Shown here: one piece after another, positions 9,859 to 61,856 of the stretch
Layout of the letters: each line of letters begins with the position of its first letter
Numbering within the stretch: position 1 is the first letter of the stretch
Made by a program: the position numbers and the translations under genes
Source of the DNA: Acidobacteriaceae bacterium
GTDB taxonomy: Bacteria > Acidobacteriota > Terriglobia > Terriglobales > Acidobacteriaceae
DNA length: 64,000 nt
Assembly (NCBI GenBank): GCA_003151335.1
Contig: PLXE01000112.1
Location: 2,981 to 66,980, forward strand
Direction: 5' to 3'
The notes under the pieces: generated by a model
The model's database searches: none
The model's input: the letters and a program-made list of their open reading frames with translations, nothing else
Told to the model about the DNA's origin: nothing

Positions 9859-11445
9859 ATGCGGCGCGGTTCGCGTTCTCTCACCACAGTTGTTGCAAGA
9901 TTGGCAATTGTCGCGGCGCTGCTCGCGCCGGCGACGACGATCGCGGCCAATCGCCCTGCGGTTTCCCAATCCCATTCCGACGAGGCCCGCGCCGAGCGCT
10001 ACTTCCAAAGCATTCGCAAGGACCCCAACCTGCTGCTGGCCTTTCTGCGCGAGATGCCCAAGGGAGGCGATCTCCACATTCACCTCACCGGATCGGTTTA
10101 CGCGGAATCGTACATCCTGTGGGCGTCGGAGGAAGGTGAGTGCGTTGATCCCCATGTCTTGTCCTTCAGCGCGCCCCCGTGCAACGCGCCTGCGGTGCCG
10201 GTTGCGAACGCCTTCGCCGATACCCAGCTGTACGGCAACATCGTTGACGCCATCTCGATGCGCAACTGGCAGTACTCGGGCCAGTCCGGACACGACCACT
10301 TCTTCGCGGTGTTCGGCAGGTACGTTCAGGCGACGAACGGCACCACCGACAAAGCGCTGGCGGAGACCGCCGCCCGCGCCGCTGCCCAGCACGAGATCTA
10401 TCAGGAGCTGATGCTTACGCCGACCGGCAAAGACCTGGAGACACTGGCCGAGTCGGTTGGTTGGGACGAGGATTTTGCCCGGCTGCAACAAAAGCTGCTG
10501 GCCGGCGGGTTGCCGCAGATTCTGGCTGCTGCCAGCCAAGAACTCAATGCGGCAGAGGCGTCGCGCGACAAACTCCTCCACTGCGGCGTTCCCGCCGCCG
10601 ATCCGGGATGCCAGGTTGTACAGCGCTACATAGCCCAGGTGTCACGGGGCAAGCCGAAAGAGGTGGTCTTCGCCCAGATTCTCACCGGCTTTCTGCTGGC
10701 GGGGGCCGACCCCAAGCTGGTTGCGCCCAACCCGCACGTGGTCGGCCTGAACCTGGTGATGGCGGAAGACTGGTATGTCCCCATGCGGGATTTTGCGCTG
10801 CACATGCGCATGCTCAATTACTTTCACGAACGCTATCCGCAGGTGCACATCGCGCTGCACGCGGGCGAACTGGTCGAGCGGCTTGTCCCTCCCAAGGACT
10901 TGCAGTTTCATGTGCGCGATTCGGTCGAGATGGGACACGCCGAACGCATCGGACATGGGGTTGACGTGATGAACGAAACTCGCCCCTTCGAGCTTTTGCG
11001 GGAGATGGCCGACCGCAATGTGATGGTGGAAATCTGCCTCACCAGCAACGACGTCATCCTCGGCGTGCGCGGGCCGCAGCATCCGCTAAGCGAGTACCTA
11101 CGCGCCGGTGTGCCGGTGGCGCTGGCCACCGATGACGAGGGCGTCTCCCGCTCGGACATAACCCACGAATATCTGAAGGGCGCACAGGAACAGAATCTCA
11201 GCTATCTGCAGTTGAAGAAAATGGCGCGCACCAGCCTGGAACACGCCTTCATCGGCGGCGCCAGCCTGTGGCGTGACGGGAAGGCGTTTAGCGTGGTCAA
11301 GGAATGCGAAAGCGAGAAGGCCGGAGCGACGCAACCGTCGGCGATATGTCAGAAGTTTCTCGATGGCAGCGAAAAGGCGCGGCTGCAATGGAAGTTGGAA
11401 ACCGAGTTCCGCCAGTTTGAAGCGAACACGTGGACGGTGCCGTGA
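9859..11445 (+). CDS. adenosine deaminase family protein, exported
   Basis: ATG at 9859 follows GGAG. There is a signal-like N-terminus. Motifs GGDLHIHLTGSVY, ALHAGE, HGVDV and ATDDEGVSRSD are typical of the adenosine/AMP deaminase metal site. Confidence 0.8.
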   Translation: MRRGSRSLTTVVARLAIVAALLAPATTIAANRPAVSQSHSDEARAERYFQSIRKDPNLLLAFLREMPKGGDLHIHLTGSVYAESYILWASEEGECVDPHVLSFSAPPCNAPAVPVANAFADTQLYGNIVDAISMRNWQYSGQSGHDHFFAVFGRYVQATNGTTDKALAETAARAAAQHEIYQELMLTPTGKDLETLAESVGWDEDFARLQQKLLAGGLPQILAAASQELNAAEASRDKLLHCGVPAADPGCQVVQRYIAQVSRGKPKEVVFAQILTGFLLAGADPKLVAPNPHVVGLNLVMAEDWYVPMRDFALHMRMLNYFHERYPQVHIALHAGELVERLVPPKDLQFHVRDSVEMGHAERIGHGVDVMNETRPFELLREMADRNVMVEICLTSNDVILGVRGPQHPLSEYLRAGVPVALATDDEGVSRSDITHEYLKGAQEQNLSYLQLKKMARTSLEHAFIGGASLWRDGKAFSVVKECESEKAGATQPSAICQKFLDGSEKARLQWKLETEFRQFEANTWTVP

Positions 11446-11457
11446 GATCGATTGGGT

Positions 11458-11619
11458 TCACCACAGAGACACGGAGGCACAGAGAAGATTTATTACCACG
11501 GACGACACGGAGATTGATTTTTCGTTCTCTTTAGTAATTCTTGGTTTTTCCCCGCGACCTCGGTGCTCTCCGTGGTGACAAGGTCCTTCTTCTCTGTGTC
11601 TCTGCGCCTCTGTGGTTGC
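11458..11619. repeat. inverted-repeat element (CCACAGAGRCACGGAG family), copy 1
   Basis: The left arm is ttcaccacagagacacggaggcacagagaag (11458-11488). The right arm is cttctctgtgtctctgcgcctctgtggttgc (11589-11619). The arms are complementary at 24/31 positions by hand. There is an inner sub-repeat, ttaccacggacgacacggagat. It lies between the deaminase stop and the permease start. Confidence 0.7.
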
Positions 11620-11671
11620 CGTCTCATGCCGCAAACCGCAAATTCCATGTAGACTTTGAAAAACTCCTCGC

Positions 11672-13159
11672 ATGGGTCAGGAAACAACTTTGGGTAACAG
11701 TTTGCCAGCCGCCGCATCGAAAACCTCCTATCCCCCTGTCGCGAACTCAGGCAGCGCTGCCGTTGCTGCGAAGCGTACTCAATTACGCCGGGTATTTCGC
11801 GTGCGGGACGGCGTCGCGCTGATCATCTCCAACGTGGTTGGCGTCGGCATCTTCACCACGCCCGCCATCATCGCCAAGCTGGTGCCCGAACCCCGCGCCA
11901 TGCTTGCCCTTTGGATTGCCGGTGGATGCCTCGCCCTGGCTGGCGCAATGTCGTATGCGCAATTAGGACGGAGATGGCCGTCAGCCGGAGGAGAATACAT
12001 TTACCTCTCCAAGGCCTACGGCCCAACCGCCGGCTTTCTTTCCGGCTGGACATCGCTGATAGCCGGCTTCTCCGGGGCCGTGGCCGCCAGCGCCGTGGGG
12101 CTGGTCATTTATCTTGGCCAGTATTTTCCCAGGCTGGCGTCGGACCACGCATTGCTTTCCATCAACTTCTATGTGGGAGCATTCACGTTTTCACCGCGCT
12201 CGCTCACCGCGGCTGCCATTATCGTCGTGTTCGCCGTCTTACACGCCTGTCACTTGGGAGCCGGCAAGCTGACGCAAAATGCGCTGGCCCTCCTGATCTT
12301 GGCGATCGTCCTTCTCTTTTGCCTGTTTGGATTTGCCGTGGGGACGGGTTCATGGTCGCACTTCCAGTCGGCCCACATACCTATCCGTCCGATGAACTGG
12401 CTGCTCGCTCTGATTCCCATCATGTTCACTTACAGCGGCTGGAATGCAGCCTCGTATATCTCGGAGGAGTTGCACGACACGCGGCGCATGATCGGCCCCG
12501 CGCTGCTGATCGGGACTTCCATTATCGTCGGTCTCTATTTCCTTCTGAACACGCTGTACTTGTATGCGATTCCGCCCGCCGCCATGCAAGATGCCGTAAA
12601 TGTCGGCGACGTGACAGCGCACGCGTTGTTCGGAGTGGGGAGAAACTTCGTGACTCCGGCGCTGATCGTCGCTCTGCTGGGCGCCGTCAGCGCCATGACT
12701 ATCGCGGGACCGCGCGTTTACTTCGCCATGGCCCGCGACGGGGCTTTTGTGCCAGGCTTCGACCGCACCAGCCCACGATTCGGCACGCCTGCGCTGGCCA
12801 TTGCGCTGCAAGCTTTGTGGTGCGTGGTGCTGGTGATGGCTGGCGGGTTCTATCAGCTTCTGATGTATACCGGATTCACGATTCTGTTGTCTTCGGGCGC
12901 GGCGGTGGCGGGACTGTTCGTAGTCCAGCGACGCGAATTGCGATCCAACCCCAAGCTCTGGCTCAAGATGTTGGCGCCTGCAATTTTCGTCATCGCCTGC
13001 GCCGCCATCGTTGTCAACGCGGTGGTGGGAGCTCCCAAGACCGCGCTGGTTGGTTGTCTGCTGATCGCGGCTGGACTTCCGGTTTTCTTCTGGTCAAGGC
13101 GGCGAAAAGCTGCGGAACCGGCCGCCGGACCCGAAACGACCGTTGTCGAAGCAGGGTAA
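11672..13159 (+). CDS. APC-family amino acid permease
   Basis: 495 aa, polytopic and hydrophobic throughout. The N-terminal motif LIISNVVGVGIFTTPAII is typical of APC transporters. Confidence 0.8.
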   Translation: MGQETTLGNSLPAAASKTSYPPVANSGSAAVAAKRTQLRRVFRVRDGVALIISNVVGVGIFTTPAIIAKLVPEPRAMLALWIAGGCLALAGAMSYAQLGRRWPSAGGEYIYLSKAYGPTAGFLSGWTSLIAGFSGAVAASAVGLVIYLGQYFPRLASDHALLSINFYVGAFTFSPRSLTAAAIIVVFAVLHACHLGAGKLTQNALALLILAIVLLFCLFGFAVGTGSWSHFQSAHIPIRPMNWLLALIPIMFTYSGWNAASYISEELHDTRRMIGPALLIGTSIIVGLYFLLNTLYLYAIPPAAMQDAVNVGDVTAHALFGVGRNFVTPALIVALLGAVSAMTIAGPRVYFAMARDGAFVPGFDRTSPRFGTPALAIALQALWCVVLVMAGGFYQLLMYTGFTILLSSGAAVAGLFVVQRRELRSNPKLWLKMLAPAIFVIACAAIVVNAVVGAPKTALVGCLLIAAGLPVFFWSRRRKAAEPAAGPETTVVEAG

Positions 13160-13184
13160 AGAGGCTGCTGAAAAAATCGGGAAA

Positions 13185-13226
13185 GCAGATCCCTCGCGGG
13201 TTTTAAACCCGCTCGTGATGACAAAA
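13185..13226. repeat. REP-like element, reverse orientation
   Basis: Sequence is gcagatccctcgcgggttttaaacccgctcgtgatgacaaaa. It is nearly the reverse complement of 47073-47115. A hairpin ggcgcacctgaaggtgcgcc follows it. Confidence 0.65.
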
Positions 13227-13278
13227 ACTAAAGCGCTTAACGGCGCACCTGAAGGTGCGCCCCTGCTTTTGCGAGTCT

Positions 13279-15147
13279 TCACTCCACCGTAACCGACTTC
13301 GCCAAATTGCGCGGTTGATCCACGTCGCAGCCGCGGCGCACGGCAATGTGATACGCCAGCAACTGGCAGGGAACCACCTCCAGAATTGGCGCGAGCAGTT
13401 CGGGCGCATCGGGAACGTAGAGGACGTGGTCGGCGGCTTCGCGAATCTCCTCGTCGCCGTCGGTGGCGATGGCGATCACCGTTCCAGAGCGCGCTTTCAC
13501 TTCCTTCAGGTTCGACAGCGTCTTCTCGTAGCGCAGCACCGAGCCGGGATCGGTCTTGTCGTGCGTAGCCAGAATCACCACGGGAAGGTCTTCGTCGATC
13601 AGCGCGTTCGGCCCGTGCTTCATCTCGCCCGCGGGATAGCCCTCGGCGTGAATGTAGGAGATTTCCTTCAACTTCAATGCGCCTTCCAGCGCGATGGGGT
13701 AGTGAATGCCGCGTCCTAGAAACAGGAAGTCGTGGGCGCGGTGGTATTCCTTGGCAAGATCTTCGGTTTCCTCGTCGCGCGTCAGCAGAGTCTCCAGCTT
13801 GCCGGGCATGAGAGTGAGATCGGTAAGGAGCTGCTTGGAGTGGTCGAGATCGAGTTTTCCACGCACCAGGCCGAGGTGGACCGCGAACAGGAACAGTGCG
13901 GTCAGTTGCGCAGTGAAAGCCTTCGTCGAGGCCACGCCAATCTCCGGCCCGGCATGGGTGTAGATGGTGCCGTTGGCTTCGCGCGCGATCATGGAGCCCA
14001 CCACGTTGCAGATGCCTACCGTCTTCGAGCCTTTGGCGCGCGACTCGCGCATGGCCGCGATGGTGTCAGCGGTCTCGCCTGACTGCGTAATCAAGATGGT
14101 CAGATCACCGGGTCCGGTCAGCGGATCGCGATAGCGGAACTCGCTGGAATAATCCACCTCCACCGAAAGCTTGGCCAGCCGCTCAATCATGAACTTGCCC
14201 GCCAGTCCAGCGTGCCAGCTGGTGCCGCAAGCCGCGATATACACCTTCTCCAATTTGCGGAAATCTTCGTCGGTGATGTCCATCTCGTCGAGGAACACCT
14301 TGCCGGAGTCGAGCGAGACGCGGCCCAGCGTGGTATCGCGCACCGCTCGCGGCTGCTCGTAGATTTCCTTCAGCATGAAATGCTTGAAGCCGCCCTTCTC
14401 CGCCATAATGGGGTCCCAGGTGATGTGCTGCACCTGGCGGGTGATGGGCTGGCCCTCGAAGTCGGTGAGTTGCACGCCCGAGGACGTGATGACAGCAAGG
14501 TCGCCGTCGGCGAGAAAGAACAGGTCGCGAGTGTGGTACAGGATGGCCGGCACATCGCTGGCGACGAAGTATTCATCTTTGCCCAGACCGATGACTGCGG
14601 GCGGGCCATTGCGAGCGGCCACAATTTTGTTGGGCTCGTCGGCCGAGATGACGGCGATGGCGAACACGCCGGTCAGCAGCTTCACCGTCTTGCGCACGGC
14701 TTCTTCCAGCGGAACCTTGCGATCCGCCTCGGAAAGGTTTTTCTCGATGAGGTGGGCGATCACTTCGGTGTCGGTCTCGGTGCGAAATTTGTGGCCTTCG
14801 TCGATCAGCTTCTTCTTCAGGGCGACGTAGTTCTCCACGATGCCGTTGTGCACAACCACGACCTTGCCGGTGCAATCGCGGTGGGGATGCGCGTTCTCTT
14901 CGGTGGGACGGCCATGGGTGGCCCAGCGGGTATGGCCAATGCCGTAGGTGCCGTCGAGCGGCTTGAGGCGGATGACCTCCTCCAGGTTGCGCAGCTTGCC
15001 CTCGGCGCGGCGCACCTGCAAACCATCGCCGTTGCCGCCCACGGCAATACCGGCCGAGTCATAGCCGCGATATTCGAGGCGGCGCAAGCCGTCAATGATG
15101 ACCGGCACAACCCGCTTTTTCCCGACGTAGCCAACGATGCCGCACAT
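13279..15147 (-). CDS. glmS: glutamine--fructose-6-phosphate aminotransferase
   Basis: 622 aa. It begins MCGIVGY (Ntn amidotransferase Cys), has two SIS domains and ends VTVE. Confidence 0.97.
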
Positions 15148-49455: not shown

Positions 49456-49800
49456 CACGAATCCTGATTGGCCGATTGGCAGGAATACGAAAAGCGTAAC
49501 ACAGGCGGGCCGGGCGGACCGTGCGAAGTCCGAGCGCAAACCATTGCCTCAGGTCCTCGACCCTACCAGACACAGAATGCTACCCGTTTATTTCCCACCC
49601 CGACCTGGCCCGGCTGTCACGGCGAACGGTGATTTGAAACACTGCGCCACCTCAGGACTGGGTGGTACATATTCATTGAAGTTAGTGGCGTGCCTCGCCA
49701 GGAGCCATTCCTGGCAACGGCGCACTCGGGAAGGGGCCGCGGAGCGCGTCGCCATGGGCAGAATGCGATAAGCGCAGTTCTATCGGGAAGGAGGTTCTCG

Positions 49801-50598
49801 ATGAACAGGAAGATATTTGCACTGGTGGTGCTTCTAGTTTTCTGCGGTCAAGCCCTATGCCAAACCGGCGTCAAGAAGAAAAGGCCGCTTCCCTACGAAT
49901 ACGGCCGGGTCGTTATCGACAACTACTCCGATAAGGCGGACCTGGCGCCCGTTGTCTTCGAGCATTGGATCCACCGTTCCAAGTTCACCTGCAGGGTCTG
50001 TCACGTGGACGTCGGTTTTGCGATGAAGGCCGGAGCTACGGGGATCACGGCCGCAGACAACGAGCGAGGCTATTACTGCGGCAGCTGTCATAACGGGAAG
50101 AGGATGGTTGACGGGAAAACCGTCTTCCAATCCTGCTCCAAGAAGGTGACCGACGAGGACGCGCAGAGGTGCCAGCGTTGCCACTCCTATGGACAGAAGG
50201 TCGCGTCCGATTACGACTTCTTCCGATTCAGTGAACCGCTTCCCAAAGAACGCTTCGGGAACGGGCTGGATTGGGAAAAATCAGAGGAGTTGGGACTCAT
50301 CAAGCCGGCAAAGTTCCTCGAGGGCGTCTCCATACAAAGGAACTCGCTCGTCGTGCAGAAGGATTTCGCGCTCAACCCGAAGGTTGAGGGAATGCCTAAC
50401 ATCATCTTCTCCCACAAGAAACATACTGTCTGGAATGGATGCGAGCTTTGTCACCCAGAGATATTCATGGGCGTGAAAAGGGGAACCGTGCGGTACTCGA
50501 TGGTGGACATATCCCAAGGGAAGTCCTGTGGCGTGTGCCATACCACGGTGGCGTTTCCTTTGACGGATTGCCAGCGCTGCCATTCCAAACCGGTATAA
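49801..50598 (+). CDS. periplasmic hexaheme c-type cytochrome (two c7-type triheme halves)
   Basis: It has a signal peptide, MNRKIFALVVLLVFCGQALC. There are six CXXCH motifs (CRVCH, CGSCH, CQRCH, CELCH, CGVCH, CQRCH). F-x-H-x-x-H precedes the first heme of each half, as in cytochrome c7. Confidence 0.85.
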   Translation: MNRKIFALVVLLVFCGQALCQTGVKKKRPLPYEYGRVVIDNYSDKADLAPVVFEHWIHRSKFTCRVCHVDVGFAMKAGATGITAADNERGYYCGSCHNGKRMVDGKTVFQSCSKKVTDEDAQRCQRCHSYGQKVASDYDFFRFSEPLPKERFGNGLDWEKSEELGLIKPAKFLEGVSIQRNSLVVQKDFALNPKVEGMPNIIFSHKKHTVWNGCELCHPEIFMGVKRGTVRYSMVDISQGKSCGVCHTTVAFPLTDCQRCHSKPV

Positions 50599-50620
50599 CC
50601 CCGGCCGGGCGGAGGCGTCC

Positions 50621-50959
50621 ATGTTCAAGGCGAAGATTGTCGTGGTACTGGTGATGTTCATGGGGCTCGTCGGCCTGTGTGGCCTGCGGGAGATCGGCGG
50701 GTCCCCTCCGTCTGCTTCGCAAGCGGACCCAGCGCGGGAGTCTTGGCGGAAGGAGTTCGATGACGTTTGCTCAAAGACCCAGGACGCCATGACCTTCTCG
50801 CAGGAGGAACTCAGGGACCTGATTCGCAGGTGCGACGCCCTGCTGCCGCAGATTGAAAAGCTCGACGAATCGCGGAAAAAGGTCTACCTGGGACGATTAC
50901 AGAAGTGTCGAGGCCTTTATGCCTACGTACTTGATGCGAAAAAGAACGAGAAGAAATGA
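50621..50959 (+). CDS. hypothetical membrane-anchored helical protein
   Basis: 112 aa. GGAGG lies upstream. An N-terminal hydrophobic helix is followed by a charged helical region with three Cys. It overlaps the next gene by 26 nt. Confidence 0.5.
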   Translation: MFKAKIVVVLVMFMGLVGLCGLREIGGSPPSASQADPARESWRKEFDDVCSKTQDAMTFSQEELRDLIRRCDALLPQIEKLDESRKKVYLGRLQKCRGLYAYVLDAKKNEKK

Positions 50960-51755
50960 GCGCGGGTTTCTCCTGCTGGTGCTGGCCTGCGGAATCTTGC
51001 TTCTGGGAAATATCGCGTTAGCCCAAATGTATTTGCCCGAACCTCCACCGGAACCGTCGGAGTATGGCAAGGTGATTCTTGACAACCACTCCAAGGCTGG
51101 CCCCGGCGCCGTGGTATTTGATCATTGGCTTCACCGTTCCAAATTCACCTGCCGGCTCTGCCATGTAGATATCGGCTTTGCCATGCAGGCGAACGCCACC
51201 GGCATCAATGCGAGCACGAACCGCGAGGGTTTCCATTGCGGCGCCTGCCATGATGGTAAGAGGGTGTTGGAGGGAAAAACCATCTTCGCGGCGTGCTCCG
51301 ATGCCGCCAACGACAAGCAGTGTGACCGCTGCCATTCCCTGGGCAAGAAGGGCGTAAGAAAATATGAGTACAACAAATTTACTGCGAAATTCCCGAAGAG
51401 CTTTTACGGTGTGAATTGGGAAGAGGCGGAGAGATCTGGCGTCATCCAACCCATCGATTTTGTAGAGGGTTTATCCGTCAAAACGCCGAAGATGCAGAAC
51501 AGGAAAGATTTTTCTATCGCAGCAGGTTACTCGTGGGTCCACCCCATTGGCTTCTCTCACGAGAAGCATTCTATCTGGAACGGCTGTGAACTCTGCCACC
51601 CCGAAATATTCCCGGCTGGCAACCGAGGCACGATCCGCCACACCATGTATTCTAATGTCGAAGGCCAATACTGCGGTGCCTGCCATGGAAAGGTGGCTTT
51701 CCCGCTCAACAACTGCCAAAGATGTCACCCAAAAGGCCCCGTCTGGGCTCCATGA
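50934..51755 (+). CDS. periplasmic hexaheme c-type cytochrome, paralogue of 49801..50598
   Basis: It has a signal peptide. The six CXXCH motifs (CRLCH, CGACH, CDRCH, CELCH, CGACH, CQRCH) are collinear with the paralogue. NGCELCHPEIF is identical in both. Confidence 0.85.
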   Translation: MRKRTRRNERGFLLLVLACGILLLGNIALAQMYLPEPPPEPSEYGKVILDNHSKAGPGAVVFDHWLHRSKFTCRLCHVDIGFAMQANATGINASTNREGFHCGACHDGKRVLEGKTIFAACSDAANDKQCDRCHSLGKKGVRKYEYNKFTAKFPKSFYGVNWEEAERSGVIQPIDFVEGLSVKTPKMQNRKDFSIAAGYSWVHPIGFSHEKHSIWNGCELCHPEIFPAGNRGTIRHTMYSNVEGQYCGACHGKVAFPLNNCQRCHPKGPVWAP

Positions 51756-51774
51756 ATGGGCATCGGAATTGGGA

Positions 51775-51811
51775 ATTAGTGCTAACGGCTAACTGCTAAC
51801 TGCTAACTGCC
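51775..51811. repeat. heptamer-phased repeat tract
   Basis: Sequence is attagt gctaacg gctaact gctaact gctaact gcc. It lies between convergent genes. Confidence 0.65.
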
Positions 51812-53599: not shown

Positions 53600-53866
53600 A
53601 ATGTTCCTCACCTTACTTAAGCCGCGGTGCGGCTTTGCCACGAAGATCGGCCATTCCCAAAGCCCCCTAGGGGGAGCCACGACGATTTGACTGCGGCAGT
53701 GCCCCAACGTCAGTTCGCGAGCACTTTTCTGCGCGCCGCAGAGAGTCAAAGATGCTGAATTTGCATTTATACTAGCAGACAGTCCGTCCCACGAGGCACC
53801 CTGATGTGTTCTGAGAAACACCTTACTTGTTCCGGTATTTCACCCGTTACGCTTAGCTCCGTGAAA

Positions 53867-55045
53867 ATGGCGGTCCTCGCCTTGGGGTTGAGCTTGTTTT
53901 GCTTTGCCGTACCGGCGCAGGCCCAATCCTCCAGCAGCACCGATTCTGGGACGCAAACGCAATCGCAGCCGACTAAGAGCCAGCAAGAGCAGATGCCTGC
54001 CGAAGCGGGAGGCCCAGCGGGCGAATCCGGCTCCGTTGCGGTGCCTAAGAAGAAGGGCACGGAAGACGCGCCTCCACCCCCCAAGCCGAAACAGCCCACC
54101 GACAATCCGCAATACTCGTTGCACGTCGACGTTCCGGTGGTAAGCGTGGATGCACGCGTGTTGCAGAAGGACGGGCGTCCCCTGGCATTGCCGGAACAGG
54201 CCGCCAAGGAGCACTTCAAGATTTACGAAAATGGGGTTCCGCAGCAAATCCAGAACGTCACCATGTCCAAGGCGCCCATCACCGCGGTCCTGCTGGTGGA
54301 ATTCGCATCCACCAATTACAACTTCATGTATGACGCGCTGAATGCCTCGTACATGTTTGCCTCGAGCCTGCAACCCCAGGACTGGGTCGCCATCGAGGAA
54401 TTCGACATGAAGACGCATATCCTGCTGGACTTCACGCAGGACAAACAAGCGGTCTTCGGTGTGCTCAACCGGCTGCGCATTCCCGGGTTTAGTGAGACCA
54501 ACATCTTCGACGCCATGTATGACACGCTGGACCGCCTGGACCGTATCCCCGGCCACAAGGAGTTGGTGGTGGTCGCCAGCGGTCGCGATACCTTCAGCAG
54601 GATCACCCTCGACACCATTCTCAAGAAGATCAAGGTCACGCCCAACGTGACCATCTATACCATCTGTACCGGTGAAGCTTTCCTGGAGCGGGTGGACGCA
54701 GTAGCTGGCGCAAATCCCAACATGTCTCCGCTGATGATGGAGTACGTCCAGGCCAAGAACCAGATGAACGTCTTCGCCAGGATGACGGGCGGCCGCAGCT
54801 ATGCTCCGCGGCTGATGGGCGAATTGCCGGACATTTTCCGCGAAGTGGCCCAGGCGATCCGTAATCAATACACCATCACGTATAAGCCCACCAACACCAA
54901 GCAAGACGGCACCTATCGCAAGTTGAAGGTTGAACTGGTGGGGCCGGATGGCAAGCCGCTCATCATCAAGGACGAAAAGAACCATGACATCAAGTATCAG
55001 ATCGTGGCCCGCGAGGGTTACACCGCCAAGCACGAGGTGGAATAG
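53867..55045 (+). CDS. VWA-domain protein of the acidobacterial VWFA-related type
   Basis: It has a signal peptide, MAVLALGLSLFCFAVPAQA, followed by a low-complexity linker. The VWA core is TAVLLVEFASTN...ETNIFDAMYDTLDRL...ELVVVASGRDTFS...TIYTI. Confidence 0.8.
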   Translation: MAVLALGLSLFCFAVPAQAQSSSSTDSGTQTQSQPTKSQQEQMPAEAGGPAGESGSVAVPKKKGTEDAPPPPKPKQPTDNPQYSLHVDVPVVSVDARVLQKDGRPLALPEQAAKEHFKIYENGVPQQIQNVTMSKAPITAVLLVEFASTNYNFMYDALNASYMFASSLQPQDWVAIEEFDMKTHILLDFTQDKQAVFGVLNRLRIPGFSETNIFDAMYDTLDRLDRIPGHKELVVVASGRDTFSRITLDTILKKIKVTPNVTIYTICTGEAFLERVDAVAGANPNMSPLMMEYVQAKNQMNVFARMTGGRSYAPRLMGELPDIFREVAQAIRNQYTITYKPTNTKQDGTYRKLKVELVGPDGKPLIIKDEKNHDIKYQIVAREGYTAKHEVE

Positions 55046-55143: not shown

Positions 55144-57219
55144 ATGAGATCCGCCCAGAAATTTCTTAGTCCCGCCCTTAAACTTGTTGGAATTATCGTC
55201 CTCGGCCTTCTCGCCGCCGACGCGCAGGATGCGCCGAAACCAGAGATTCACGGCATTGATGTCGCCAACATGGACCGCTCGGTCAAGCCGGGCGATAACT
55301 TCCATCTGTACTGCAACGGCGACTGGATCAAGCGCACCGAGATTCCCCCCGACCGCTCGCGGCTAAGCGTCTTTGCAACCCTTGCCGACGTGAGCGACAC
55401 GCGCACCGCCGCCCTGGTTGAAGAGGCGGCCAAGAATGGCGGGCCTGCCGGCTCTAGCGCGCGCAAAATCGCCGTTCTCTACAGCTCTTACATGGACGAG
55501 GGCGTCATCGAGGCCAAAGGTCTCGCGCCGCTCCATCCTCATCTCAAAGCCATCGCTGCCATTAGAAACAAGAAAGAGTTGGCGGCCGTGCTAGGGGAAA
55601 CGCTGCGCGCTGATGTTGACGCGCTGAATAACACCAACTTCCATACTCCGCATCTGTTTGGATTGTGGGTCGCCCCCGGCTTCAACGATTCCGATCATTA
55701 CGCCGCTTACCTCCTGCAAGGCGGCCTGCAACTGCCGGACCGCGAGTATTACCTTTCCAACAGCGAGCAGATGCGTGACATCCGCACCAAGTATCAGGCG
55801 CACGTCTCAGCCATGCTCAAGCTGGCGGGATTCACGGATACGGACGCCCGGGCCGAGCGCATTGTCGCGTTGGAGCACGCCATCGCGGAAAAACATCTCA
55901 CCCTCGCGGAAAATGATGACATCCACCAGGCCAACAACACCTGGAAGCGGGCAGACTTCGTGGCCAAAGCTCCGGGCCTCGACTGGGCCGAATACTTTCG
56001 CGGCGCCGGCCTCAGCAAGCAAGCCAGCTTCATCGTTTGGCAGCCTACCGCCTTTGCCGGCGAGTCTGCTCTGGTGGCCTCCACTCCGCTGGACACGTGG
56101 AAGGATTGGCTCGCCTATCACATGATCGAAGAGTACGGCGATGTACTACCGAAAGCCTTGGCTGACGAGCGTTTCGCCTTCTTTGGTAATGTGCTGCAAG
56201 GATCGCCGGAACAGCGTCCGCGCTGGCAGCGCGGTGTGGTGATCGTCAATCGGTACCTCGGCGACGACGTCGGGAAGATCTATGCGTAGCGCTACTTCTC
56301 TCCCGAAGCCAAGGCCCAGGCGCAGGCCATGGTGGCCAACATCATTGCCGCTTTCCGCAAGCGAATTGAGGCGCTTCCGTGGATGGCGGCATCCACCAAA
56401 GCCGAAGCTCAAGCCAAGCTGAACACTCTGTACGTCGGCGTCGGCTACCCGGAGACCTGGATCGACTACTCAGCCTACGAGGTGAGGCCGGATGACATCT
56501 TCGGCAACGTCTGGCGCGGTAATGTTTTTAAGTATCACCACGAGGTCGCGCGCCTGGGCGCAGCGATTGACCGCAAGGAATGGTCCATGACGCCGCAGAC
56601 GGTCAACGCGGTAAATCTGCCGCTGCAGAACGCTTTGAACTTCCCAGCTGCAATTCTGCAACCTCCATTCTTTGACCCGCAGGCACCCGCGGCGGTCAAC
56701 TATGGCGCCATCGGCTCGGTCATCGGCCACGAAATCAGCCATACCTTCGATTCGGAGGGGGCCGCGTTCGACTCCAAGGGTCGGGTGCGCAACTGGTGGA
56801 CGCCCGCCGATCTCGCCCATTTTGAAGCGGCCACCGCCAAACTCGCCGCGCAGTATGACACCTATAAGCCGTTTCCCGATCTTTCCCTCAATGGCAAGCA
56901 GACGCTGGCTGAGAACATCGCCGACGTCGCCGGCATCTCGGCTTCGTATGACGGCTACCGCGCGTCACTCGCAGGCAAGGAAGCGCCGGCGCAAGATGGT
57001 TTCTCCGGCGACCAGCAATTCTTCATCGCCTTCGGTCAGGACTATAGGGCAAAGTCGCGGGACGCTGCGCTGCGCCAGCAGGTGGCGGTTGACTCGCACT
57101 CGCCCGCCGAGTTCCGGGCAGATACGGTTCGCAATATCGACGCCTGGTACGCGGCTTTCGATGTCAAGGCGGGAGAAACGCTGTACCTGGCTCCGTCGGA
57201 ACGCGTGCGGATTTGGTAA
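55144..57219 (+). pseudogene. M13-family metallopeptidase (PepO/neprilysin-like) interrupted by a single in-frame TAG
   Basis: The N-terminal M13 region (55144-56286) and the C-terminal catalytic region (HEISHTFD, ENIADVAG, ends RVRIW) are in the same frame. They are separated only by TAG at 56287-56289 (GKIYA*RYFSPEAKAQ). Confidence 0.8.
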
Positions 57220-57581
57220 TGGATGAAGGACGGTCAGAGTTTGCATGACAACTCGTTCTGAGTTGGCGCGTTGGGGTGATTGCGCAAAATTCAGCCCCGC
57301 AGGGGCGAATAATGCCAGTCCAGGGCGTGACCGGGGCGGTGAACTCCTGGGCAAAATGGAAAGGATTAACGATTTTTTTTGGACATCACAGTTCCCACGC
57401 ATCCTCTAGGGGTCTTAAATCCTCTAAAAGTCTTATCAGGAAGCGGGTTGAGGATTACGTATATGGGATTGCTTGTATAATGTATGGCGTTTTCGATTCA
57501 AGAAGGAAATCTCGGGTAACGCTGTGGGTATTGGCTGGTCAGCCTGTTGACCATCCTGCGAAAAGTTTGTCAGGAGCAAGG

Positions 57582-58523
57582 ATGACTCTCGTGCGCCGTA
57601 GACCGATCCCGTTTTTGCCTGTCTTCCTCATGGCTTGGTGTTTGACCGCCACCCTTCCAGCGCAGGAACACCCCAGCAACCCGAGTCCCACGGCATCGGC
57701 GGCGCTCCCAGGCTCAACCGGCGGCCAGTATGCCGAGACCGACATTTGCCAGACGTGCCACCAGGAAGTCTGGGACAAGCACTTTGCCAACACTCCGCAC
57801 GCGGCGTTACTCAAAGGCAACCAGCACGGATGCCAGGCTTGTCACGGTCCGGCGCAAGCCCATGTTGACGGCGGCGGCGATCCCACCAAGATCGTTCGCT
57901 TTGAGAAGCTGAGTCCGGCGGAGACAGCAGCGATCTGTACGAAGTGCCACCAGTCGACCCCGGAAACGCAGAATTTCTCCAAGTCCGAACACCTGGCGAA
58001 TGGCGTCAGTTGCACCAGCTGTCACAGTCCGCACCGATCCAAGGACGTCAACTTCCTGCTGGTGAAACCGCAGACTGAGCTGTGCTACGGATGCCACGCC
58101 GCGCAGAAGGCCGAATTTGCCCGGCCCTATCGCCACCGCGTCGATGTCGGACTCATCCAATGCAGCGACTGCCACAATCCTCACGGCACCGAGACCGGTC
58201 ACCAGGTGCGAGCTGCCGCCGGTCAATTCAAGGTTTGCACCAAATGCCACACTGACACCATGGGGCCGTTCGTCTTCGAACATGCCCCGGTGAAGACTGA
58301 CGAAAGCTGCCTGCAATGTCATATGCCACACGGTTCTACGAATCCGCGTTTGCTGCAGGTCAACAACGTCAACTTTCTTTGCCTTCGCTGCCATACGGCG
58401 AATATGAATGGAGCAGCGCCAGGCGCGCCCTCGTTCCACAACCAGGCCACCAAGTATCAGGCGTGCACGATGTGCCACACGCAAATCCATGGTTCCAACT
58501 TCGATCCCTTCTTCTTCCGGTAG
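57582..58523 (+). CDS. MtrA/DmsE/MtoA-family periplasmic decaheme c-type cytochrome
   Basis: ATG at 57582 follows AGGAG, with a signal peptide, MTLVRRRPIPFLPVFLMAWCLTATLPA. There are ten CXXCH motifs in 313 aa (CQTCH, CQACH, CTKCH, CTSCH, CYGCH, CSDCH, CTKCH, CLQCH, CLRCH, CTMCH). Confidence 0.88.
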   Translation: MTLVRRRPIPFLPVFLMAWCLTATLPAQEHPSNPSPTASAALPGSTGGQYAETDICQTCHQEVWDKHFANTPHAALLKGNQHGCQACHGPAQAHVDGGGDPTKIVRFEKLSPAETAAICTKCHQSTPETQNFSKSEHLANGVSCTSCHSPHRSKDVNFLLVKPQTELCYGCHAAQKAEFARPYRHRVDVGLIQCSDCHNPHGTETGHQVRAAAGQFKVCTKCHTDTMGPFVFEHAPVKTDESCLQCHMPHGSTNPRLLQVNNVNFLCLRCHTANMNGAAPGAPSFHNQATKYQACTMCHTQIHGSNFDPFFFR

Positions 58524-58535
58524 TGGGGGCATGAA

Positions 58536-60890
58536 ATGGGTTGTCAAAGAAGTTTCGGCGCTTGTTCTTTTGGATTGGCCCTGCTGGCGGTCTGCCTGTC
58601 TTTGATCTGCAACACGCTTGGGCAGAGCTCGGGCCAGACGGCAGCCTCCGCGTCTGCCGATTCGAGCTCGGGCGCAGGAGAGGGTAAAAAGATCGGTGAC
58701 TTTCAGGTAACGCAGTCCATCGAGCTGGGCGGCCGCATCTCCGAGGTCAATGGCAGCCAGCCGATGTACGACACCCTGGTCAATGACCAGAGCGGTGCTC
58801 GCATCCTGGAACAGTCGCTCACCATGCAGTCTCTGACACACGAGGACATTTTCGACACCCTGACGCTCAACAGCTTTGGATGGGGCGGCGATCCCCAGCA
58901 GGCGGCGCGCATGCGCGTGTCGAAATACCGCTGGTACACCTTCAGCGGCAGTTATCAGCACATGCAGAACTATTTTGATTACGACTTGTTTGCCAACCCG
59001 TTGAATCCGCCCACCGGTACGCCGTTCATTCCGATCCTGAACTCACCACACGGCTACTACAACCGGCAAAACCTTTACAACTTCGATCTTGTCGTGCTGC
59101 CGATGCACCGCTTATCGTTTCGGGCGGGCTACAACCGGAACCGCTTCGCGGGGCCTGCGTTCAGCAGCATCCATGAAGGTACGGAGGCACTGCTAAACGA
59201 GAATACTGACAATACGCTCAACGGATATCGCTTCGGCGCCGACTTCCGCGCCACCAAGAAGACCACCCTCAGTTACACGCAACTGCTTCAGTACTATGAT
59301 GGCGGGACGACTTATGGCCTGAACCCGTTCAATTCCTGGCCGCTTCCCAATGGCACGCCCGTCAGCTTGGGACTCTCCTGGTTCAACAGCGGAAGTCCCT
59401 GCGCGAAGCCGCTCAACAACGGGGTCGCCAATCCAACGTGCAATGGTTTTCTCGATTACAGCCTGGACCAGCACATAAACACATTTGTCCCAACCGAACA
59501 GTTCAACCTGACCTCCTCTTCGCTCAAATGGCTGGACTTCAATGGCCAGTTCCAGTACAGCCATGCGCAAATGAACACCCCGTTCACGGAAATTTTCCGT
59601 GGTTTAAGCAGCCGCACGGCGAGTCTCGGCTCCAACACAACAGGCAGTAGATCCGACGCCAAGTGGAATTCTTCTTCCGCAGACATTTCGGCTACGATTC
59701 ACGTCACCGATAAGCTCCGGCTGGTGGAAACCTTCCGCTTCCGCAATTTCAGTGTCGCCGGCGATTATTTTGATCTTCAGGCCAACTACTTCAACGCTGC
59801 CTCCTTCGGCTCCGCCTCGCTGCTCAATCCGGTGGCGATGTTTCCTGGCACGAATCTCTTCCACAATTCCAGTTCTCCTGCCGACATCATCAATGAGATG
59901 ACGATCAACATGATCGGCCAGAATACGAAGCAGAATGATTTCCAGGTGCAGTACGATGTATCGCGCTGGTTTGGAGTGCGCGCCGGGTTCGTGTGGGCCA
60001 ATTCCACCATTCAGCCTGGGAACACCTATCAAGCCGCTTTGGGAGACATTTATTACCCCAATCTACCCAATCGCGGCAATTGTGTCGGCTTACCGTTGAA
60101 CCCGGATGGCAGTTGCACGTTCAGCGGAGTCATTGCGCCGTTTGGCAGCCCGACCACCGAGACCAATAATTACTCCGGCGTGGTCGGGGCTTGGTTCCGG
60201 AAGGGAAGCACCCTGCATGCCAACCTCAATGCGAAATATGGCAGGGCTGACAATTGGATCTATCGCATCGATCCCCTGAGTTCTCTGAATGTTTCCGGAA
60301 ACGTGTCGTATTCGCCCCGCCCTTGGATGACGGTGGGCGCCAATCTTAATTTCCAGCAGGCCAGGAACAACACCAGCGACATCCGGTTCAGCCAGCACAA
60401 CTACTCGACGGTGCTCAACGCCATGATCAATCCCAACAAATACTGGGGACTGGACATGGCGTACAACTTCGATGCCATTCAGCAGAACATGTTCCTTTGC
60501 TTTGCTGGAACGGTGGCCCCGCCGGACACCACCACCTGTGCCGAAGATCCCACGCTGCAGCAGACGTACGGTTTCTATCGCACCCGTACTCAGTTCGGTT
60601 ACTTCGCCTTGACGCTCACGCCCATCGAGCGCGTCACCATGCGCCTGGGATACAACATCGTCGACAACCAGGGCAACACGACCTCGCTCAATACGCTGCT
60701 GCCGTTGGGTCCCCTTTCCTCCATTTATCAGTCACCTCTTGCCGCAGTGGATGTCCTTGTCCACAAGGACGTCACGTTGAAAGCCGCCTGGAACTATTAT
60801 CAGTACGGCGAAGGATCGTTCGTAGGACCGACCGCCCCACGCTATTTCCATGCCAACAATACGACGCTGGCTCTGAGGTACGCCTTTTGA
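58536..60890 (+). CDS. MtrB/PioB-like large outer-membrane beta-barrel protein
   Basis: 784 aa. It starts 13 nt after the decaheme gene's stop and has a signal peptide. It has no heme motifs. It is rich in Y/N/G/S/T alternating segments and has a terminal ...TLALRYAF aromatic end typical of OM barrels. The assignment rests on context plus composition. Confidence 0.6.
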   Translation: MGCQRSFGACSFGLALLAVCLSLICNTLGQSSGQTAASASADSSSGAGEGKKIGDFQVTQSIELGGRISEVNGSQPMYDTLVNDQSGARILEQSLTMQSLTHEDIFDTLTLNSFGWGGDPQQAARMRVSKYRWYTFSGSYQHMQNYFDYDLFANPLNPPTGTPFIPILNSPHGYYNRQNLYNFDLVVLPMHRLSFRAGYNRNRFAGPAFSSIHEGTEALLNENTDNTLNGYRFGADFRATKKTTLSYTQLLQYYDGGTTYGLNPFNSWPLPNGTPVSLGLSWFNSGSPCAKPLNNGVANPTCNGFLDYSLDQHINTFVPTEQFNLTSSSLKWLDFNGQFQYSHAQMNTPFTEIFRGLSSRTASLGSNTTGSRSDAKWNSSSADISATIHVTDKLRLVETFRFRNFSVAGDYFDLQANYFNAASFGSASLLNPVAMFPGTNLFHNSSSPADIINEMTINMIGQNTKQNDFQVQYDVSRWFGVRAGFVWANSTIQPGNTYQAALGDIYYPNLPNRGNCVGLPLNPDGSCTFSGVIAPFGSPTTETNNYSGVVGAWFRKGSTLHANLNAKYGRADNWIYRIDPLSSLNVSGNVSYSPRPWMTVGANLNFQQARNNTSDIRFSQHNYSTVLNAMINPNKYWGLDMAYNFDAIQQNMFLCFAGTVAPPDTTTCAEDPTLQQTYGFYRTRTQFGYFALTLTPIERVTMRLGYNIVDNQGNTTSLNTLLPLGPLSSIYQSPLAAVDVLVHKDVTLKAAWNYYQYGEGSFVGPTAPRYFHANNTTLALRYAF

Positions 60891-60937
60891 CCCGCCGCAA
60901 ATCTGGCCGCTTGCCCACTCAAACTTCTTTGGCTTAA

Positions 60938-61076
60938 GGTGGGAACCGAAGTGGGCGTTCTGGGGAATAGAGGGCAGAGACGGTTCGCAATATCGACGCC
61001 TGATATGCGGCCTTCGATGTGAAGCCAGGAGAAACGCTCTACCTTGCGCCAGCTGATCGCGTACGGATTTTGGTAG
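60938..61076 (+). pseudogene. decayed remnant of an M13 peptidase 3' end
   Basis: 60973-61076 aligns by hand to 57118-57219 at about 85 of 102 positions. It has TGG->TGA, an in-frame TAG upstream and a 1-nt insertion before the stop. It translates as ..AETVRNIDA*YAAFDVKPGETLYLAPADRVRI.. Confidence 0.75.
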
Positions 61077-61101
61077 TCGTGGACTATCACTAGGAGGACG
61101 C

Positions 61102-61404
61102 ATGGCCAAATCCGAAAGACTTAGGCCCATTCATCCCGGCGAAATTCTGCGCGAAGATTTCATGAGGCCGCTGCGCATCAGCATGAACCGCCTCGCGCTT
61201 GACCTGCGTGTCCCCGTGACACGCATAGGTGAGATTGTGCATGAGCGGCGCGGCATCACTCCCGATACGGCGCTGCGACTGGGACGCTATTTCAACACCA
61301 GCGCGCGCTTCTGGATGAACGCCCAATCCAGCTACGACCTGGAAGTGGCGCAAGACGAACTGCGGCGCACCATCGAGCGCGACGTGCGTCCTCTGGTGGC
61401 ATAA
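61102..61404 (+). CDS. higA: HigA-family antitoxin (XRE HTH), no HigB partner
   Basis: 100 aa. IHPGEILREDFMRPLRISMNRLALDLRVPVTRIGEIVHERRGITPDTALRLGRYFNTSARFWMNAQSSYDL is the HigA/VapI pattern. AGGAGG lies upstream. Confidence 0.8.
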   Translation: MAKSERLRPIHPGEILREDFMRPLRISMNRLALDLRVPVTRIGEIVHERRGITPDTALRLGRYFNTSARFWMNAQSSYDLEVAQDELRRTIERDVRPLVA

Positions 61405-61589
61405 GCTGTTGTCCGCTTGGAGCAACGATTTCTCCAGTCGGTCTGAAGGATTCCGGTCGTGGTGACAAAGGGACGGTTGGCAAAGGCTCGGCGATGTCGG
61501 CGTGCGCTCGCTTTGCGGTTTGCAGAAACGCATGTTATCCTTGATCCCGTAACAACATACGATTAAAGAGTAGGAGCGCAGCTGATTCA

Positions 61590-61856
61590 GTGTTAGCCCC
61601 AGAGAAAAAAGCCGCTTTGATTGACCAACACCGCACTCATGCGACCGACACCGGTTCGCCCGAAGTGCAGATCGCGATCCTGAGTACACGGATTGGTGAA
61701 TTGACGGAGCATTTTAAGACGCATAAGAAGGACCACGCCTCCCGGCGCGGTCTTCTCATGATGGTGAGCCGGCGTCGTGGCCTGCTCGATTACCTCAGAA
61801 AGTCGGATACCGAACGGTATAAGACTGTCATTCAGAAGCTCGGCATCCGAAAGTAA
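61590..61856 (+). CDS. rpsO: 30S ribosomal protein S15
   Basis: GTG start. 88 aa. [49 protein letters not shown] is the S15 signature. Confidence 0.95.

Follow-up and report, generated by a model that had tools for sequence, protein, structure and literature searches.

A Displaced M13 Peptidase Gene End beside an MtrAB-Like Gene Pair in an Acidobacterial Chromosome, a Probable Scar of Recombination between Two Versions of One Slot

Genes and features of the locus

The stretch of DNA analyzed here, hereafter the window, comprises 64,000 nucleotides (nt) from a peat-dwelling Acidobacteriaceae bacterium (GenBank assembly GCA_003151335.1, contig PLXE01000112.1, positions 2,981 to 66,980). Within it, two adjacent genes predicted to encode an MtrAB-like conduit for extracellular electron transfer lie between a gene for an M13 metallopeptidase and the ribosomal protein gene rpsO, and the last bases of an M13 gene recur, in diverged and decayed form, just downstream of the second conduit gene. 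This second M13 end is a scar without a function of its own. We propose, with a probability of roughly 0.78, that it was left by recombination between a "conduit" and a "higBA" allele of the slot, anchored in homology at one end and illegitimate at the other, and was then reshaped by deletions. The slot and its flanks contain the following features.

53804-55045, plus strand: acidobacterial VWA protein gene, the upstream neighbor of M13
55144-57219, plus strand: M13 metallopeptidase gene, full length (PF05649, 274 bits; PF01431, 206 bits)
57116-57218, plus strand: first copy of the repeat, the final 103 nt of the M13 gene, defined by alignment and repeat search
57220-57366, plus strand: 147-nt stretch (el147) occupying the place of a racemase gene
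57367-57581, plus strand: AT-rich leader of the conduit operon
57582-58523, plus strand: decaheme c-type cytochrome gene, MtrA/DmsE family (ten CXXCH motifs in the translation)
58536-60890, plus strand: gene for a 784-amino-acid outer membrane beta-barrel (porin), MtrB-like by fold only, from a predicted model
60891-60905, no strand assigned: post-porin stretch common to relic-free alleles (L108, L106), from sequence comparison
60906-60960, minus strand: 3'-end remnant of a DUF2442-family gene, 77 to 80% identical to L009, L195, L190, and L187
60961-61076, plus strand: M13 3'-end relic, 116 bases, starting at about 60961-60965, with its strong part at 60972-61075
61077-61093, plus strand: final 17 nt of higB (..VDYH*), TCGTGGACTATCACTAG, matching the higB end of L002 and directly abutting the relic stop
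61102-61404, plus strand: orphan higA antitoxin gene (TIGR02607, 105.9 bits; cut-off, 47.7)
61405-61529, no strand assigned: spacer after higA, its first ~80 nt common to L009 and L003
61590-61856, plus strand: rpsO (ribosomal protein S15; PF00312), then pnp, the conserved right flank

Related loci are designated by L numbers. The cytochrome is recognized by TIGR03508 (246.5 bits; cut-off, 192.2) and matches chain A of Protein Data Bank entry 6r2q with an E value of 5e-37. The barrel has no match in Pfam and none by sequence in the Protein Data Bank. Its predicted model contains about 26 to 28 long strands at a predicted local distance difference test score (pLDDT) of only 56, and the best fold match of that pLDDT 56 model is 6r2q chain B, which is MtrB (E = 1e-7; template modeling [TM] score, 0.43 to 0.50). 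Korobacteraceae/Terriglobales have many homologs of the barrel, which invariably lie directly after the cytochrome gene. In distant relatives the pair occurs in unrelated contexts, with nucleotide homology limited to the two open reading frames (ORFs) and with no M13 fragment nearby.

The M13 gene upstream of the conduit retains both of its domains, but not in one ORF, as a CAG-to-TAG amber codon breaks the frame at 56287-56289 (amino acid 382). The codon is polymorphic, being TAG in 7 distinct contigs of the same species and CAG in 4, and the seemingly live M13 copy is, on its sequence, a polymorphic pseudogene in the strain represented by the window. L188, which belongs to a different lineage, has a CAG-to-TAG change of its own at about 2209-2211 (amino acid 392), ten codons downstream of the amber in the window, and M13 C termini linked to the 147-nt stretch bear unusual amino acid changes. 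Amber codons and odd C termini together suggest that selection on M13 may be relaxed in these lineages.

The relic of a second M13 gene

Smith-Waterman local alignment of the M13 gene end (57116-57218) with the DNA beyond the barrel gene (60972-61075) gives 88 identical columns out of 104, with one 1-nt gap. Its score of 126 compares with 18.4 ± 2.4 for 300 shuffles (maximum, 32), and an independent repeat search of the window also recovers the pair of M13 ends, at 85%. An earlier interpretation made from the letters of the window alone (the sequence-only reading) had reported this recurrence downstream of the porin from a hand alignment, and the exact alignment places it so far above shuffled sequence that the alternative allowed there, similarity no better than chance, fails. 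That reading was also right to call the second copy dead. All three lesions that it listed are present: an in-frame TAG at 60968-60970, a TGG-to-TGA change at 61001-61003, and a frameshift caused by one additional T in the run at 61068-61071, 5' of the relic's own TAG stop (61074-61076). The TGA is polymorphic, with TGG still found in L084 and L087. The porin-to-higA interval that holds the relic is 211 nt long and is found unchanged in 11 distinct contigs (JGI, ENA, and Logan assemblies), with 2 further contigs carrying a variant of 568 nt; recurrence of the junction in contigs of three repositories rules out an assembly artifact.

The relic as it would have been before decay was reconstructed from both haplotypes, the window type and the L084/L087 type. 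It differs from the M13 end of the window at 13 of 99 positions, 11 of them third codon positions and none a second position (binomial P = 2e-4), and its peptide is of the L002/L106/L107 type apart from a single D-to-E change. After the haplotypes split, the relic gained just 2 changes in each, two of these at second positions. Because the substitutions separating relic and gene lie mostly at third codon positions, two working M13 orthologs must have diverged before one was truncated, and the relic thus derives from a functional M13 gene that had diverged to about the level of species. Compared with each M13 gene of the clade, the relic shows 10 to 15 differences over 99 nt, and the M13 genes of the clade differ from one another in the same range. 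Relic and M13 are as far apart as species of the clade are from each other, which separates the donor lineage from the recipient lineage; distances over these 99 nt are star-like, and no source lineage is singled out.

At its left edge the relic adjoins a different gene. The sequence-only reading had suspected weak M13 similarity reaching back to about 60938, but 60906-60960 matches the 3' end of DUF2442 genes (z = 13 to 15 against shuffles) rather than M13 (z ≤ 3). An M13 origin of 60936-60960 is accordingly ruled out, DUF2442 being the better fit, and a 24-nt inverted match between 60937-60960 and higA was taken as chance. In L002, L009, L187, L190, and L195, a DUF2442 gene on the minus strand stands just upstream of the rpsO leader. 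In the window, the interior of DUF2442 abuts M13 position -116 at about 60960/60961, and a DUF2442 remnant beside an M13 end means that this join connects unrelated sequences.

To the right, the window lacks a full HigBA module: just 17 nt of higB are left, and the complete pair is present in L084/L087 and in L002. L084 and L087 belong to the same species as the window (pnp 98.4% and higA 99.4% identical). Their 568-nt interval contains, in order, the relic with TGG, an M13-racemase spacer, about 36 nt of racemase, the higB upstream region, and an intact higB. The racemase stub is of the L002/L003 type with its ATG changed to CTG, and the higB of L084 matches PF05015 and is followed by higA, the same order as in L002. 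This shared order identifies the relic as the left end of a degraded M13-racemase-higB-higA block. Relative to L084, the window has lost about 358 nt, from the relic stop to 17 nt before the higB stop, a deletion that took the racemase stub, the higB upstream/promoter region, and most of higB. A consensus terminator scan found no site between the porin and higA genes, so the orphan higA may be transcribed by read-through from the conduit operon. A search for HigB homologs as a guide to the source allele of the relic returned 7,444 matches in unrelated contexts, a family too abundant and mobile to help.

Slot variants in related lineages

Relatives were collected by a one-genome-per-species scan with the M13 C-terminal half, which gave 80 loci annotated by tblastn, and by a metagenome scan with the barrel C terminus; the comparison covers 80 genome, 80 metagenome, and 10 rpsO-anchored loci. 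In every relative the variable slot ends on the right at the conserved rpsO leader, which begins at about 61512-61530. Upstream of the leader, L002, L003, L009, L186, L190, and L191 have M13, racemase, in some cases higB, higA, further genes, and rpsO, with no conduit. L002 reads M13, Asp/Glu racemase (PF01177), higB, higA, TIR protein, DUF2442, rpsO, and pnp; L003 reads M13, racemase, higA, phosphoesterase, and rpsO; and L004 has only the racemase between M13 and rpsO. The sequence-only reading had asked whether M13 and higA are contiguous where the cytochrome pair is absent: they do occur in that order upstream of rpsO, but with racemase and higB between them.

Between M13 and rpsO, the conduit pair is found in at least four related lineages at similar overall divergence, three of them without a relic, a distribution that does not fit the earlier proposal that 57220-60972 is a single foreign insert. 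In L108, L109, and L188, M13 is followed by the same 147-nt stretch as in the window, the leader, the pair, and about 245 nt before rpsO, with neither relic nor higA. L001 and L110 have M13, racemase, leader, pair, a minus-strand TPR gene, and rpsO. L106 and L107 have M13, a spacer with the first 8 nt of racemase, the last higB bases, higA codons 1 to 55 (frameshifted), the end of the leader, the pair, and rpsO. Neighbor-joining trees of both M13 halves and of pnp group the four conduit-slot lineages in a single clade, to which L002 and L003 are the closest outgroups. A foreign origin of the M13 gene itself, for which the sequence-only reading had proposed a tree comparison, was rejected: the M13-half and pnp trees agree in recovering that same clade.

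Set against these relatives, the window arrangement is that of the L108 type on the left and that of a higBA-type allele on the right. L106 and L107 present the opposite combination, a higBA-type left part and an L108-type right part, joined at another non-homologous point, where higA breaks off at codon ~55 and runs into the final ~95 nt of the leader; by eye, the two sides share some 3 nt of microhomology. Read from sequence comparison, this fusion is another join of the two allele types without homology, formed independently of the first. In the same loci (L106 5313-5594 and L107 2343-2624), one deletion joins the first 8 nt of the racemase gene to the final bases of higB. In the ~170 related loci, a second M13 piece is found only in the window's species and in L045, as fragments both times. 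In L045, 2.6 kb with genes for a PD-(D/E)XK nuclease and a beta-propeller protein separates an intact M13 gene from an M13 3' relic (10931-13875) in two pieces, internally deleted and 76% and 87.5% identical to the intact gene, the latter over the last 224 nt; by its sequence it repeats the relic pattern independently of the window.

An Asp/Glu racemase gene follows M13 in L001 to L004 and L009, and el147 stands in its place in the window. The sequence-only reading had noted neither this replacement nor the amber codon in the seemingly live M13 gene. The stretch is common to L108 and L188 at 93 to 95% identity, and part of it (57228-57302) matches an intergenic segment after pnp in L002 (16949-17023) over 75 nt at 82.7% identity. 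Copy searches found it only in the window's species and in L108/L109/L188, plus this match in L002. It contains the hairpin GCCCCGCAGGGGC. The leader begins exactly where homology with L001 resumes past the racemase stop. An Rfam scan of 57100-61700 returned no RNA family at E ≤ 1, and a consensus promoter scan of both intergenic regions returned no promoter-like site. The minus strand has two terminator-like hairpins at 57294-57309, a number within shuffle expectation.

The leader had been described beforehand as AT-richer than its surroundings, and it is: GC is 0.447 over 57367-57581 against 0.593 for the whole window, and 0.49 to 0.52 in 300-nt windows over the leader region. The sequence-only reading had also proposed GC and codon-usage windows across the region. 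GC and GC at third codon positions (GC3) of the pair were set aside as signs of foreign origin, the lower porin GC (0.56) being a family trait in every context and the porin GC3 being like that of the neighboring genes.

Losses recur across the clade. The window, L106/L107, and L003 each lost higB independently while keeping higA, and racemase was lost in three ways, by el147 replacement, by internal deletion (L084), and by deletion into higB (L106/L107).

Within one species, L084 and the window are 98.4 to 99.7% identical in VWA, higA, rpsO, and pnp, 92 to 94.5% identical in the barrel gene, and 93% identical in the 3' part of M13. The genes for this surface-exposed barrel (58536-60890 and L084 7078-9432) are mosaic alleles, and parts of the window's are nearer to other species, its 5' third being 97.4% identical to L001. 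Between the window lineage and L106/L107, synonymous divergence (dS) of the cytochrome gene is 0.06 to 0.07, against 0.22 to 0.33 for VWA, M13, and pnp; relative to L001, dS of the pair is 0.18 to 0.22 and that of the flanks 0.27 to 0.42; relative to L108, the pair is comparable to the flanks. Where dS of the pair falls below that of the flanks, the conduit genes have moved between lineages by recombination, and recombination across the slot is, by these comparisons, frequent.

Proposed history and rival explanations

From the anatomy of the locus, the homology of each of its pieces, the intermediates, and the pattern of divergence, we infer both a recombination mechanism and a direction. Korobacteraceae-like Terriglobia carry two structural versions of the slot between M13 and rpsO-pnp. 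The higBA version reads M13, Asp/Glu racemase, higB, higA, other cargo with DUF2442, and rpsO, and the conduit version M13, racemase or its 147-nt substitute, leader, MtrA-like cytochrome, MtrB-like barrel, and rpsO. A chromosome bearing one version, in the ancestor of the window's species, would have recombined with DNA of the other, one end joining through a homologous flank and the other joining without homology, from about 55 nt inside the post-porin DUF2442 gene to about 116 nt before the M13 stop of the other version. Homology-facilitated illegitimate recombination, or an equivalent unequal exchange, could produce this outcome: a complete M13 gene and conduit from one version and a cut M13 end with racemase, higB, and higA from the other. 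Decay would have followed, with loss of most of the racemase gene, a stub of which survives in L084; loss in the window's strain of that stub and nearly all of higB (~358 nt), orphaning higA; and the appearance of stops and a frameshift in the relic and of the amber codon in the full-length M13 gene.

As to direction, we lean slightly, at little better than even odds, toward the conduit-bearing piece as the incoming one. The low dS of the conduit genes speaks for it, as do the terminal codons of the relic (CGGATTT), its TAG stop, and its spacer type, which are the native L106/L107 type. The sequence-only reading had proposed a recombination scar between a resident and an incoming M13 end. A scar of two diverged working ends is what the locus holds; on which of them was resident, the evidence points both ways.

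Several observations weigh against the proposed history, some of them against its direction in particular. The homologous flanks on both sides (VWA-M13 and rpsO-pnp) show no identity step marking a crossover, and in sliding comparisons of the right flank L001 is closest to the window from the outset, without any tract resembling L002. The hosts are uncultured and represented by metagenomes only, a route of DNA uptake (competence, conjugation, or transduction) is presumed, and the triple loss of racemase within the clade is not predicted by this model. No allele is as common among the sister lineages as the conduit allele without a relic; the relic reads GGGGAATAG (G-E-Y type) where every M13 gene of the clade has GCCGAGTTC (A-E-F); and higA is nearer L002 (90.6% identical) than L106/L107 (87.7%). 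These last three facts favor the same mechanism run in reverse, with a resident chromosome of the order M13, 147 nt, conduit, DUF2442, and rpsO receiving a higBA fragment that extended from 116 nt before an M13 end through racemase, higB, and higA. Such a fragment would have been anchored at the rpsO leader and rpsO and joined illegitimately in DUF2442, making the relic the end of incoming DNA and not a former resident gene. L108, L109, and L188, which share the left structure of the window, lack the relic and differ from it only between porin + 18 nt and the rpsO leader; the racemase stub and spacer are closest to L002; a 10-nt patch at 61523-61532 is unlike all sister lineages; and HigBA is a very widespread, mobile module. 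We regard this reversal as a serious possibility, although a doubtful one. From 61533 on, L001 is the closest sequence and differs from the window by 1 mismatch over the first 200 nt of flank (61530 onward), which would put the crossover at the very edge of homology. The last codons and stop of the relic (CGG ATT .. TAG) are of the L106/L107 type rather than the L002 type, and signs of recent movement between lineages are seen in the conduit genes, not in the higBA block.

Explanations that invoke no exchange of this kind fare worse. An ancient duplication of M13 and racemase, with tandem paralogs flanking the conduit and the downstream copy truncated later, would account for the spacer and racemase stub that come after the relic, as expected of a second full copy, and for synonymous-biased divergence between copies that both once worked. 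Around the conduit, however, no second intact M13 or racemase gene was found in the ~170 related loci; the gene is single copy in outgroups on several branches, so that repeated losses would be needed; and the relic lies as far from M13 as the M13 genes of different species lie from each other. We consider tandem paralogy very unlikely, and the sequence-only reading, which had named an intact second M13 gene in close relatives as the outcome favoring it, is borne out on this point. Prophage e14 and phage 21 at the E. coli icd gene provide a model for another possibility, a site-specific integrative element with the 3' end of M13 as its target and a substitute gene end of its own, leaving an intact end, cargo, and a diverged displaced end in direct orientation. 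That geometry fits the window, and the copies share a 23-nt identical block, ACGGTTCGCAATATCGACGCCTG. Unlike the icd locus, the slot has no integrase or att core, and its borders vary between lineages. By gene lists and Pfam, neither the DNA between the copies nor that within 10 kb encodes an integrase, transposase, or other recombinase; the 23-nt block codes for a motif, TVRNIDAW, that is conserved in all M13 genes; the pair occurs elsewhere without an M13 fragment and with homology ending at the two ORFs; and sister lineages hold the conduit in this slot with different borders. A site-specific element is largely refuted by these findings and keeps hardly any credence. In-place duplication, through a long target site duplication or replication slippage with later decay of one copy, shares with the locus the direct orientation of the copies but is refuted by the substitution pattern, since 13% divergence that is nearly all at third positions, with the peptide conserved, excludes it. 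The earlier objection to a target site duplication, made on divergence alone, is strengthened by this bias in codon position.

Rather than a passive hot spot of recombination, the slot could be a dedicated cassette exchange site at which gene ends (M13, higA, and DUF2442) are reused as recombination substrates, and at which conduit, toxin-antitoxin, and defense-type genes are shuffled between species by an unrecognized, possibly recombinase-assisted displacement akin to that of Rhs and type VI secretion system (T6SS) loci. The L045 relic, the L106/L107 junction, and a right boundary of the slot that all lineages have in common are compatible with this idea, which taken as a whole we consider very unlikely.

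Relation to known systems

Homology-facilitated illegitimate recombination is well established from transformation and conjugation, with evidence from E. coli conjugation (PMC3240628) and from work cited in PMC5361080 (de Vries & Wackernagel 2002, Prudhomme et al. 2002, Meier & Wackernagel 2003). As in that process, DNA without a counterpart in the recipient would here have been fixed beside a homologous flank, with the far end joining unrelated sequences and recipient DNA lost at the join. Unlike the experimental cases, the process at this locus is inferred from natural variants of uncultured bacteria and not observed. The same mechanism has been invoked for displaced ends and orphan immunity genes at T6SS/Rhs loci (PMC5361080). 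In Rhs/T6SS effector-immunity arrays (Jackson et al. 2009; Kirchberger et al. 2017, PMC5361080), a new module likewise stands behind a conserved upstream gene, and the old 3' end and its small partner, here the M13 end and higA, are displaced downstream as orphans. However, M13 is not a polymorphic toxin, the window has a single displaced end and no array, and the cargo is a respiratory conduit rather than a toxin-immunity pair.

Clusters of porin and multiheme cytochrome genes are carried by peat Acidobacteriota (bioRxiv 10.64898/2026.05.27.727921), a report that does not cover the history of this locus. The pair resembles MtrAB-type conduits in that a decaheme MtrA-family cytochrome gene stands beside that of a large barrel with MtrB as its best fold match. 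It differs in having no adjacent MtrC-like outer cytochrome and a barrel without sequence similarity to MtrB, and its function is predicted.

In type II toxin-antitoxin loci, deletion of the toxin gene leaves orphan antitoxins. The window follows this pattern, with higB deleted and higA kept together with its ribosome-binding site, but its deletion also took the higB promoter region seen in L084.

The locus is an ordinary recombination scar, notable chiefly for the intermediates preserved in related genomes, and leaves the current understanding of recombination unchanged. Its value is that of a dated, well-bracketed record in which a predicted MtrAB-like extracellular electron transfer module is exchanged among species-level lineages of abundant peat Acidobacteriota at one chromosomal slot beside rpsO-pnp, at times through non-homologous joins. 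Strains of one species carry porin alleles as divergent as those of other species. Such exchange matters for the spread of respiratory capacity through peat communities and for the binning and comparison of these genes in metagenomes. The locus also provides natural examples of toxin loss with the antitoxin kept and of stepwise decay (racemase, higB, and M13).

Other observations

Cargo between the racemase and the rpsO leader differs by lineage among L002, L003, L009, L187, and L190 to L195, and across the slot includes higBA, DUF4160/DUF2442, a TIR protein, a SIR2-like protein, a phosphoesterase, DUF6714, and a TPR protein. The conduit pair frequently adjoins mobile DNA. In L101 (9471-13046), the barrel gene of an 87%-identical pair is followed immediately by genes for a phage-type integrase, Prim-Pol, and PriCT, and in L104 and L105, IS200-type (Y1) transposase genes stand directly upstream of the cytochrome, accompanied in L105 by a phage-type integrase gene.

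Five kilobases upstream of the conduit, the window contains a further cytochrome-bearing insertion or deletion, a segment of ~2.3 kb (49513-51810) that has no counterpart in L001 or L003, whose flanks are contiguous there. It encodes two c7-type multiheme cytochromes (PF14522), at 49690-50598 and 50853-51755.

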